64,000 nt of DNA from Acidobacteriota bacterium (GTDB lineage Bacteria > Acidobacteriota > Blastocatellia > RBC074). The notes beneath the pieces are model-generated. The model ran no database searches. It saw only the letters and a program-made list of their open reading frames with translations, and was not told where the DNA came from. Positions 62,974 to 63,474 of the stretch are shown here, piece after piece. A program made the position numbers and the translations under genes. Each line of letters begins with the position of its first letter. Within the stretch, counting starts at the first letter, position 1. The stretch is taken from positions 21,696 to 85,695 of the forward strand of contig JAFDVL010000102.1 in assembly GCA_018268995.1 (NCBI GenBank), read 5' to 3'.

Positions 62974-63474
62974 CTAGGCCACATCAGAAAGTGGTAGATA
63001 CCCAACCCCTATCTGTTGGCTATTGCAAAAGAAACTCAGGTTACGGCGGATGAATTTTCCAGTTCGTGTGCCATCCGTTCCCGGAAATGGATGATAGGGT
63101 TCCATGCACTGCACAGTGCTTCCTTTTTGATCGAAGATCACATTCATATGGGTTCCGCCAATGACAGGATAATTGAAAATTACGATCATTGGGGAATCCA
63201 GCCCTTCATAAGATTTAAACTGATCAGGGGATAAATAATTCAGTGAAATGCGGATTTCAGCATCTTCGCACACTTTACGAATTGACGAGATTGACATGCC
63301 GCCATTGGAATCACAAAGATGCATAAACTTGCCAATCATCTCGCCGACTTCAACGCTTTTCCGCTTAAAATTCAAAGACATTGCTTTCGTCCACCAACTG
63401 ATACTTGCTGCCCAGCAGGAGTTCATATCAGGTTGACCATGAGGTTTTAATTTTTTGGTATAGTCGTAGCCCAT
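62974..63474 (-). CDS. 166-aa papain-like Cys/His protein (C39-like / Tae4-like?) located where tssE would be expected.
   Basis: No signal peptide. The N-terminal Cys motif is DMNSCWAASISWW. A downstream His lies in GGTHMNVIFD. Nothing resembles the gp25/TssE signature. It ends 8 nt before tssF. Confidence 0.45.
   Translation of the reverse strand: MGYDYTKKLKPHGQPDMNSCWAASISWWTKAMSLNFKRKSVEVGEMIGKFMHLCDSNGGMSISSIRKVCEDAEIRISLNYLSPDQFKSYEGLDSPMIVIFNYPVIGGTHMNVIFDQKGSTVQCMEPYHPFPGTDGTRTGKFIRRNLSFFCNSQQIGVGYLPLSDVA

Follow-up and report, generated by a model that had tools for sequence, protein, structure and literature searches.

A predicted papain-fold cysteine peptidase encoded directly before tssF in a type VI secretion operon of Acidobacteriota

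Introduction

What is a small cysteine-peptidase-like gene doing directly before tssF, a type VI secretion system (T6SS) baseplate gene? The question is raised by a 64,000-nucleotide (nt) stretch of DNA, hereafter the window, from an Acidobacteriota bacterium (Blastocatellia; RBC074; assembly GCA_018268995.1, contig JAFDVL010000102.1, positions 21,696–85,695), and by the open reading frame (ORF) at 62974..63474 on its minus strand, hereafter gene X. A preliminary description of the window placed gene X in the position of tssE and proposed that its product could be a Tae4-like or C39-like amidase or peptidase effector, or else a divergent baseplate wedge standing in for TssE. Here, we find that gene X encodes what appears, from sequence and structural model, to be an active C39/C70-like cysteine peptidase of a family unannotated in Pfam and NCBIfam, and that the T6SS has a TssE of its own. 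The proposal that gene X is a small T6SS cargo protease effector, similar to EvpQ and Tce2, is the one we favor, with about even confidence.

Descriptions of papain-like cysteine proteases linked to the T6SS (EvpQ, TsaP, Cpe1) have come mainly from Pseudomonadota until now. The newly defined family is well conserved, is centered on soil Acidobacteriota and Planctomycetota, carries a clear catalytic signature, and is found within T6SS core operons.

Gene X encodes a predicted C39/C70-like peptidase

Gene X and the codons of its predicted catalytic residues lie in the window as follows:

62974..63474, minus strand: gene X, a 166-amino-acid (aa) ORF with an ATG start; predicted stand-alone papain-fold cysteine peptidase, C39/C70-like
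63433..63435, minus strand: codon of Gln14 (ttg/caa), predicted oxyanion-hole residue; invariant in the 32-sequence alignment, Gln in 169/179
63415..63417, minus strand: codon of Cys20, predicted nucleophile in the motif CWAAS; invariant in the 32-sequence alignment, Cys in 176/179
63148..63150, minus strand: codon of His109, predicted general base in the motif GGTHMNV; invariant in the 32-sequence alignment, His in 174/179
63100..63102, minus strand: codon of Glu125, predicted third triad residue in the motif MEP; invariant in the close family

The ORF is as the preliminary description had it, 166 aa long with an NSCWAAS Cys motif and a downstream His, and ending 8 nt before tssF; the strand, which had gone unstated, is minus. 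The 18.7 kDa protein (isoelectric point 8.3) has no signal peptide, and its N-terminus, MGYDYTKKLKPHGQPDMNSCWAAS, includes the NSCWAAS motif, with GGTHMNV further downstream. We consider gene X a genuine gene rather than a chance ORF because it has 62 homologs with E ≤ 1e-29, because 29 columns are invariant in an alignment of 32 family sequences, and because the mean ratio of nonsynonymous to synonymous change (pN/pS) across seven T6SS-embedded orthologs is 0.29, against 0.28 for tssE.

Conservation was counted over the 179 family members of at least 140 aa. Gln14, Cys20, and His109 are nearly invariant, and the third triad position has Glu in 130 members, Asp in 29, and Asn in 3; judged from the sequences, the residues at all four positions are those acceptable to a papain-type triad. 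Set against the Cys-His-Asp triad of the C70 peptidases, Cys20 and His109 are conserved, and the third position, Glu in gene X, varies within the family between Glu, Asp, and Asn. Papain and the C39 enzymes also carry a Gln six residues before the nucleophile (Gln11 and Cys17 in ComA), which is the spacing between Gln14 and Cys20 in gene X. The 16 residues between His109 and Glu125 likewise equal the distance between His96 and Asp112 of the ComA triad, Cys17/His96/Asp112 (PMC5481443).

An AlphaFold2 model built on the 32-sequence alignment has a predicted local distance difference test score (pLDDT) of 87.2 and a predicted template modeling score (pTM) of 0.84. In this model Cys20 sits at the N-terminus of a helix (residues 20–35), His109 starts a strand (108–117), and Glu125 ends an adjacent one (120–125), the predicted arrangement being that of the C39 fold, in which the Cys opens a helix and the His and the acid lie on neighboring strands. 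Foldseek against the PDB ranks C39 domains first, those of PCAT1, ComA, and LahT (E 4e-6 to 1e-3, TMq 0.55–0.63), followed by Cpe1 (9l5u, E 6.5e-4), a papain-like toxin of T6SS and contact-dependent inhibition (CDI) systems. Weaker matches include Josephin-type ubiquitin clippases, AvrPphB, UfSP2, and AvrRpt2, with Tae2 at a probability of only 0.51 and CHAP endolysins weak and partial.

Pfam, NCBIfam, and PADLOC scans of gene X and close relatives returned no recognized model, the sole Pfam match being a sub-threshold one to Peptidase_C34 (17 bits), and PDB sequence and profile searches with gene X came back empty. Among the 32 members, no match at E ≤ 1 was found to the C39 profiles PF03412 and PF13529, to PF14113 (Tae4), or to the CHAP and NlpC/P60 profiles. 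The C39-like peptidase effector of the preliminary description is the closest of its options, the C39 domains being the top fold match (E 4e-6, TM ~0.6).

A family-profile search of 1.84 billion representative proteins recovered 155 relatives (clusters at 50% identity, about 155). Most are stand-alone proteins of 155–180 aa that start right at the catalytic motif, and about 35 bear a variable N-terminal extension of 100–140 aa. Three longer relatives (P-numbers denote relatives found with the profile) exceed the Pfam cut-off of 19 bits for Peptidase_C70 (AvrRpt2, PF12385): P0102 at 23.6, P0096 at 22.6, and P0184 at 20.0 bits. The same profile matches neither gene X nor 31 close relatives. In hhalign, an alignment of the longer relatives matches the gene X family with 99.95% probability (E 1e-37), with the Gln, Cys, His, and Glu motifs in register. 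Because this link to C70 is transitive, running through profile-found relatives, gene X is a remote C70 relative rather than a recognized member. Taken together, the conserved triad-type residues, the modeled fold, and the 16-residue His-acid spacing lead us to describe the product as an active-looking C39/C70-like peptidase.

One relative is organized differently. P0125 (786 aa) starts with an X-type domain, continues through a proline-rich linker into a predicted transmembrane helix, and ends in a large C-terminal region that contains a carboxypeptidase-regulatory-like domain.

The operon has a true tssE

The genes next to gene X in the window are all on the minus strand:

63513..64000, minus strand: last 161 of the 533 codons of a PKMT-type protein lysine methyltransferase gene; open frame, 100% tblastn match to the L001 protein
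62966..62973, minus strand: 8-nt spacer between gene X, whose stop ends at 62974, and tssF, whose ATG starts at 62965
61109..62965, minus strand: tssF (T6SS baseplate), directly downstream of gene X; PF05947, 768.7 bits
60028..61077, minus strand: tssG, after tssF; PF06996, 372.6 bits

The end of the window cuts the methyltransferase gene, which separates the true tssE from gene X. An exact-protein look-up for gene X found two public contigs, L001 and L002 (L-numbers denote fetched loci or contigs), whose DNA is 99.8% and 100% identical, respectively, to the last 8–11 kb of the window; being near-identical there, they reveal the sequence past base 64000. On both, the order is tagJ/impE, tssA, tssB, tssC, hcp, a 111-aa ORF, a 161-aa GPW_gp25 protein, the 533-aa methyltransferase, gene X, tssF, tssG, CsgG-like, caspase-like, and SLT genes, clpV, and a Macro-domain gene. 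The 161-aa protein matches PF04965 and scores 119.9 bits against TIGR03357 (TssE), for which the cut-off is 53.2. The bona fide tssE, which the preliminary description had suggested seeking elsewhere in the locus, is therefore located two genes upstream of gene X, just beyond window base 64000, and a two-gene insert of methyltransferase and gene X parts tssE from tssF.

Gene X is accordingly no stand-in for tssE. It shares with TssE a place directly before tssF, and that place, and nothing else, argues for a divergent TssE/gp25 wedge; the fold differs, being papain-like with a conserved catalytic set, and a TssE hidden Markov model (HMM) built from seven loci found no match in a six-frame translation of the window and left gene X unscored even at E ≤ 10. 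Profile searches might yet have brought a gp25/TssE fold to light, as the preliminary description allowed, and did not: PF04965 at E ≤ 1 matched neither gene X nor any of 32 relatives, NCBIfam (TIGR03357) gave nothing, and no gp25/TssE structure is among the best 50 PDB fold matches of the model. The earlier view of the product as a papain-like Cys/His protein unrelated to gp25/TssE therefore holds, and we give virtually no credence to a replacement of TssE, which we reject as a candidate on the strength of the true tssE, the fold, and the missing HMM score. A tempting misreading is thereby corrected: this T6SS does possess a TssE, and since the locus has its own, gene X says nothing new about baseplate architecture.

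A scan of 62500–64000 found no promoter-like or terminator-like site on the minus strand. This, together with the 8-nt spacer, fits co-transcription of gene X with tssF, as far as sequence can indicate.

Gene X occurs in two T6SS architectures and many other contexts

To read the genomic contexts, every ORF of the fetched loci was compared by local BLAST with the L001 T6SS proteins, and precomputed Pfam tables were consulted. The order tssE, methyltransferase, gene X, tssF recurs in seven distinct Blastocatellia loci (L001, L003, L008, L009, L010, L011, and L014), that of L008, which starts within the methyltransferase gene, being judged from its visible part. Across these seven loci, identity to the query is 84–87% for TssF, 85–92% for TssB/TssC, 62–81% for TssE, 53–66% for gene X, and 46–57% for the methyltransferase. 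A Pyrinomonadaceae locus (L029/L012) has a second arrangement, clpV, gene X, vgrG, with gene X 44 nt before vgrG, tssE directly before tssF, and no methyltransferase. Gene X is thus encoded within T6SS clusters in eight loci, seven of the first kind and one of the second. In L029 (5612–6049), a 145-aa ORF with no Pfam match lies between tssF and tssG and overlaps the tssG start, possibly an artefact of gene calling or an insert specific to the lineage.

Two slots in the Blastocatellia loci are variable. That between clpV and vgrG holds Macro-domain and M15-like genes in the window, is empty in L003, and is taken by gene X in L029. That between hcp and tssE holds mutually unrelated ORFs (L003:7242–7835, L011:7156–7842, L009:7203–7640, L010:6976–7818, and L001:6515–6850), two of which have an HExxH zinc-peptidase motif (HECTH in L003, HEVGH in L011), and no shared leader-bearing small ORF was found in it. 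The hcp-tssE slot looks like a swappable site for Hcp-linked cargo.

Most family members lie outside T6SS clusters, as judged from neighborhoods within 10 kb. Such orphan copies occur with varied neighbors in Pirellulales (JAXMBJ01), in Zavarzinia compransoris (GCA_003173055.1), in many Pyrinomonadales (including the Pyrinomonadaceae assemblies DASWRC01 and DATLOR01), and on most metagenome contigs; a metagenome scan, mostly of short contigs, added further orphan contexts and no further T6SS architecture. In a neighbor-joining tree, T6SS-embedded and orphan copies interleave. All-against-all BLAST of the flanking ORFs in orphan loci, examined for immunity-like or substrate-like neighbors, recovered lineage synteny alone, and no immunity-like neighbor is conserved across any of the contexts examined; as no neighbor is kept across contexts, there is no candidate immunity gene.

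Two of the orphan arrangements are distinctive. On a high-GC metagenome contig (L044), tandem gene X paralogs lie at 2151–2654 and 2992–3510, 43% and 44% identical to the query. In three Pyrinomonadales loci (L017:2648–9838, L021:2612–9808, and L018:3862–9615), gene X lies 160–390 nt downstream of a gene for a ~2400-aa Ser/Thr kinase with many TPR repeats, and a conserved DHO_dh/Dus-like gene follows downstream of gene X on the opposite strand. This arrangement probably reflects synteny within the lineage, not a functional link.

Comparison with known proteases

A counterpart in likely mode of action is EvpQ of Edwardsiella piscicida, a 173-aa stand-alone C70-like protease with 24% identity to AvrRpt2 and T6SS-dependent secretion (PMC7991086). 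EvpQ and the gene X product are alike in being small and stand-alone (173 vs 166 aa), in having a papain-like Cys/His site, and in lacking a signal peptide; EvpQ has no reported immunity gene, and gene X likewise has none. The pair is likened here by description, EvpQ being assigned to C70 and gene X tied to that family via relatives only. They differ in setting, EvpQ being encoded on a mobile island that lies 513 genes away from the T6SS cluster of a gammaproteobacterial fish pathogen and gene X in a core operon of soil Acidobacteriota, and in the third triad residue, which in gene X, unlike EvpQ, is Glu.

Similar in fold is the T6SS-associated protein Cpe1, which resembles ComA/LahT and cleaves after Gly-Gly in GyrB and ParE (PMC12136450). 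Cpe1 and the gene X product have the same C39-like fold, to judge from the model. Cpe1-type domains (also TsaP), reported in Pseudomonadota, either form part of PAAR, VgrG, Rhs, or CdiA fusions or are encoded downstream of these, and always have a cognate immunity gene, whereas gene X, in Acidobacteriota, is stand-alone and has no immunity gene. With the C39 domains of ComA, PCAT1, and LahT, gene X shares the order Gln, Cys, His, acid and the His-acid spacing of 16; unlike them it has no transporter fusion, no PF03412 or PF13529 match, and Glu rather than Asp. No gene for an ABC transporter or a double-glycine leader peptide is found near gene X in the locus.

A model for carriage is offered by Tce1 and Tce2 of the Pseudomonas aeruginosa H3-T6SS, putative cysteine protease effectors that bind Hcp3 and have no immunity genes nearby; Tce1 has been resolved inside the Hcp3 ring, and Tce2 (190 aa), which is toxic to yeast, is predicted there (PMC13323088). 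The analogy would extend to role and not to ancestry: Tce1 and Tce2 resemble the TcdB/MARTX cysteine protease domain, in which His precedes Cys, whereas the gene X product is papain/C39-like, with Cys before His. The mode of action of the gene X product is likely to be like that of EvpQ and Tce2, and its modeled fold is like that of ComA, PCAT1, LahT, and Cpe1.

A cargo protease or an accessory one?

The gene, its conserved residues, its predicted fold, its remote homology, and the gene orders come directly from the data. From these we would draw the following mechanism. Co-transcribed with the T6SS baseplate genes, gene X would give rise in the cytoplasm to a stand-alone 18.7-kDa papain-fold cysteine endopeptidase of a divergent C39/C70 (ComA-PCAT / AvrRpt2-EvpQ) branch. 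This protein would probably travel inside the Hcp tube or on the VgrG spike and, once in the target cell, would cleave a specific protein, by analogy after Gly or Gly-Gly. No immunity gene accompanies it, so the substrate is probably absent from the producer (e.g., a eukaryotic protein), or else activity would require a target-cell factor. If gene X is indeed an immunity-free effector, it would suggest that the T6SS of these abundant uncultured soil bacteria is aimed at something non-bacterial or non-self.

A functional tie to the T6SS is argued for by the two independent placements in T6SS operons, the 8-nt spacer, and the absence of promoter-like or terminator-like sites from the minus strand. 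A cargo role in particular is suggested by effector-like traits: small size, the lack of a signal peptide, copies that occur as orphans and as duplicates, the interleaving of embedded and orphan copies in the tree, and one architecture that places the gene in a cargo slot. We favor the cargo-protease reading because of these traits, because of relatives among secreted effector proteases, and because of the precedents set by EvpQ, Cpe1, Tce1, and Tce2. Several observations pull the other way, and we put it at about an even chance. In the seven Blastocatellia loci gene X is fixed in one core-operon position and evolves at the rate of TssE, while the variable slot is elsewhere (hcp-tssE), so that it is more accessory-like than a typical swappable effector. 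Most of the family lies outside T6SS clusters, no immunity-like neighbor is conserved, and gene X itself has no Pfam peptidase match. The predicted layout of P0125, a membrane-anchored protein, has the peptidase domain facing the cytoplasm, a hint that the ancestral role was intracellular. Secretion, carrier, cleavage specificity, and target are all things that we infer.

The same observations make an intracellular accessory or processing protease, retained in the producer and cleaving a T6SS component or cargo, possibly together with the methyltransferase ("cleave and methylate"), the alternative to be taken most seriously, although we regard it as unlikely. It would account for the fixed position between tssE/methyltransferase and tssF, 5–30 nt before tssF in seven loci, for the TssE-like rate, and for the lack of an immunity gene; the C39 domains, which are the nearest structural relatives, process leader peptides in the cytoplasm, and in P0125 the domain is N-terminal to a predicted membrane anchor. 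Yet gene X occurs without the methyltransferase in the clpV-X-vgrG locus, many genomes carry gene X with no T6SS gene within 10 kb, and no substrate candidate bearing a conserved leader turned up, the ORFs of the hcp-tssE slot being unrelated. To our knowledge, there is no T6SS whose assembly needs a cysteine protease. Should gene X instead be a general cytoplasmic cysteine peptidase or amidase whose place in the operon is incidental, the prevalence of stand-alone genes in unrelated neighborhoods, among the 155 relatives as among the metagenome loci, would be expected; we think this improbable, since two independent T6SS placements in different slots are hard to attribute to accident and since the spacing to tssF is tight, with no intervening minus-strand terminator.

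Very improbable, finally, is a Tae-like peptidoglycan amidase effector acting in the periplasm of a rival. In favor of it are the small size, the N-terminal nucleophilic Cys, and the lack of a signal peptide, the presence in the locus of further genes for cell-wall enzymes (SLT, M15-like peptidase, PG_binding_1, and CHAP), and weak, partial fold matches to CHAP endolysins and Tae2. However, no family member gives a Tae4, CHAP, or NlpC/P60 match at E ≤ 1; the fold matches that span the full length are to C39 peptidases, and those to amidases are partial (~85 columns) or of low probability; and the neighbors are the methyltransferase and tssF, or clpV and vgrG, rather than a gene for periplasmic (Tai4-like) immunity. 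Tae4 itself, named in the preliminary description, is absent from the best 50 fold matches, and that option lacks support. A PG_binding_1 domain in the N-terminal extension of one remote relative (P0080) was also entertained and dropped, as the match is very weak (E 0.084) and five further members of the subgroup show none at E ≤ 1.

A methyltransferase in the baseplate operon

The least expected element of the operon, and a lead that may be more interesting than gene X, is the full-length PKMT-type methyltransferase gene (L001:7548–9149). It encodes a 533-aa class-I enzyme with the Pfam domains MethyTransf_Reg and WHD_PKMT, matching the outer-membrane protein lysine methyltransferases PKMT1 (5dnk, E 4.6e-74) and PKMT2 (E 3.8e-68) of Rickettsia over its full length. 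The gene is kept between tssE and gene X in Blastocatellia T6SS loci whose contigs cover that stretch and, with a pN/pS of 0.42, is the fastest-evolving operon gene among those measured. PKMT-family enzymes multiply methylate large exported proteins, namely OmpB (PMC8232902) and AtaA (PMC11784438). A literature search combining PKMT with type VI secretion gave no paper on a T6SS-linked PKMT among the top matches listed.

Prepilin peptidase PilD both cleaves and methylates pilins. By analogy, the PKMT-type methyltransferase and a Gly-Gly-type cysteine peptidase encoded by gene X could together form a protein-maturation module dedicated to the T6SS, a speculation that we think improbable. In one version, the module would act in a PilD-like manner, clipping and methylating a tube, spike, or cargo protein before firing. 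In the other, it would be an anti-ubiquitin kit, in which lysine methylation blocks ubiquitylation, as it does with Rickettsia PKMTs (PMC8232902), and the Gly-Gly protease strips ubiquitin-like tags. Either version would be delivered to, or protective against, eukaryotic predators. That gene X is also found without the methyltransferase weighs against such a module.

Other genes of the T6SS region

Between tssG and clpV (window 56731–59946, minus strand) are three envelope genes, coding for a CsgG-like protein (PF03783 and FlgT_C), a caspase-like Peptidase_C14 protein whose N-terminal region is long, and an SLT lytic transglycosylase. The first two keep their place in related Blastocatellia loci that reach that far, and the third is found only in L001/L002 and L014. 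No tssJ is seen, and these three genes might therefore assume part of the membrane-complex or wall-crossing role.

Between clpV and vgrG (52289–53995, minus strand) lie genes for a 192-aa Macro-domain protein (PF01661, E 2e-43) and a 375-aa protein with a weak Peptidase_M15_4 match, candidate cargo effectors that could act as an ADP-ribose-processing enzyme and a cell-wall peptidase, respectively. The region that follows (43568–52278, minus strand) is probably spike-linked cargo; it encodes a 776-aa VgrG with a weak C-terminal transthyretin-like (CarboxypepD_reg) match and, after it, a 245-aa PG_binding_1 protein, a 613-aa protein with a weak Matrixin match, two ORFs without a Pfam match, and a DUF3108-like protein. 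Further along (33292–43469, minus strand) are genes for a 1511-aa FG-GAP/DUF11/beta-helix protein, a FecR/Big_1-like protein, an 803-aa caspase/CHAT-TPR protein, a CHAP-domain protein, and a Schlafen AlbA_2 plus EC042_2821 restriction-endonuclease-like protein.

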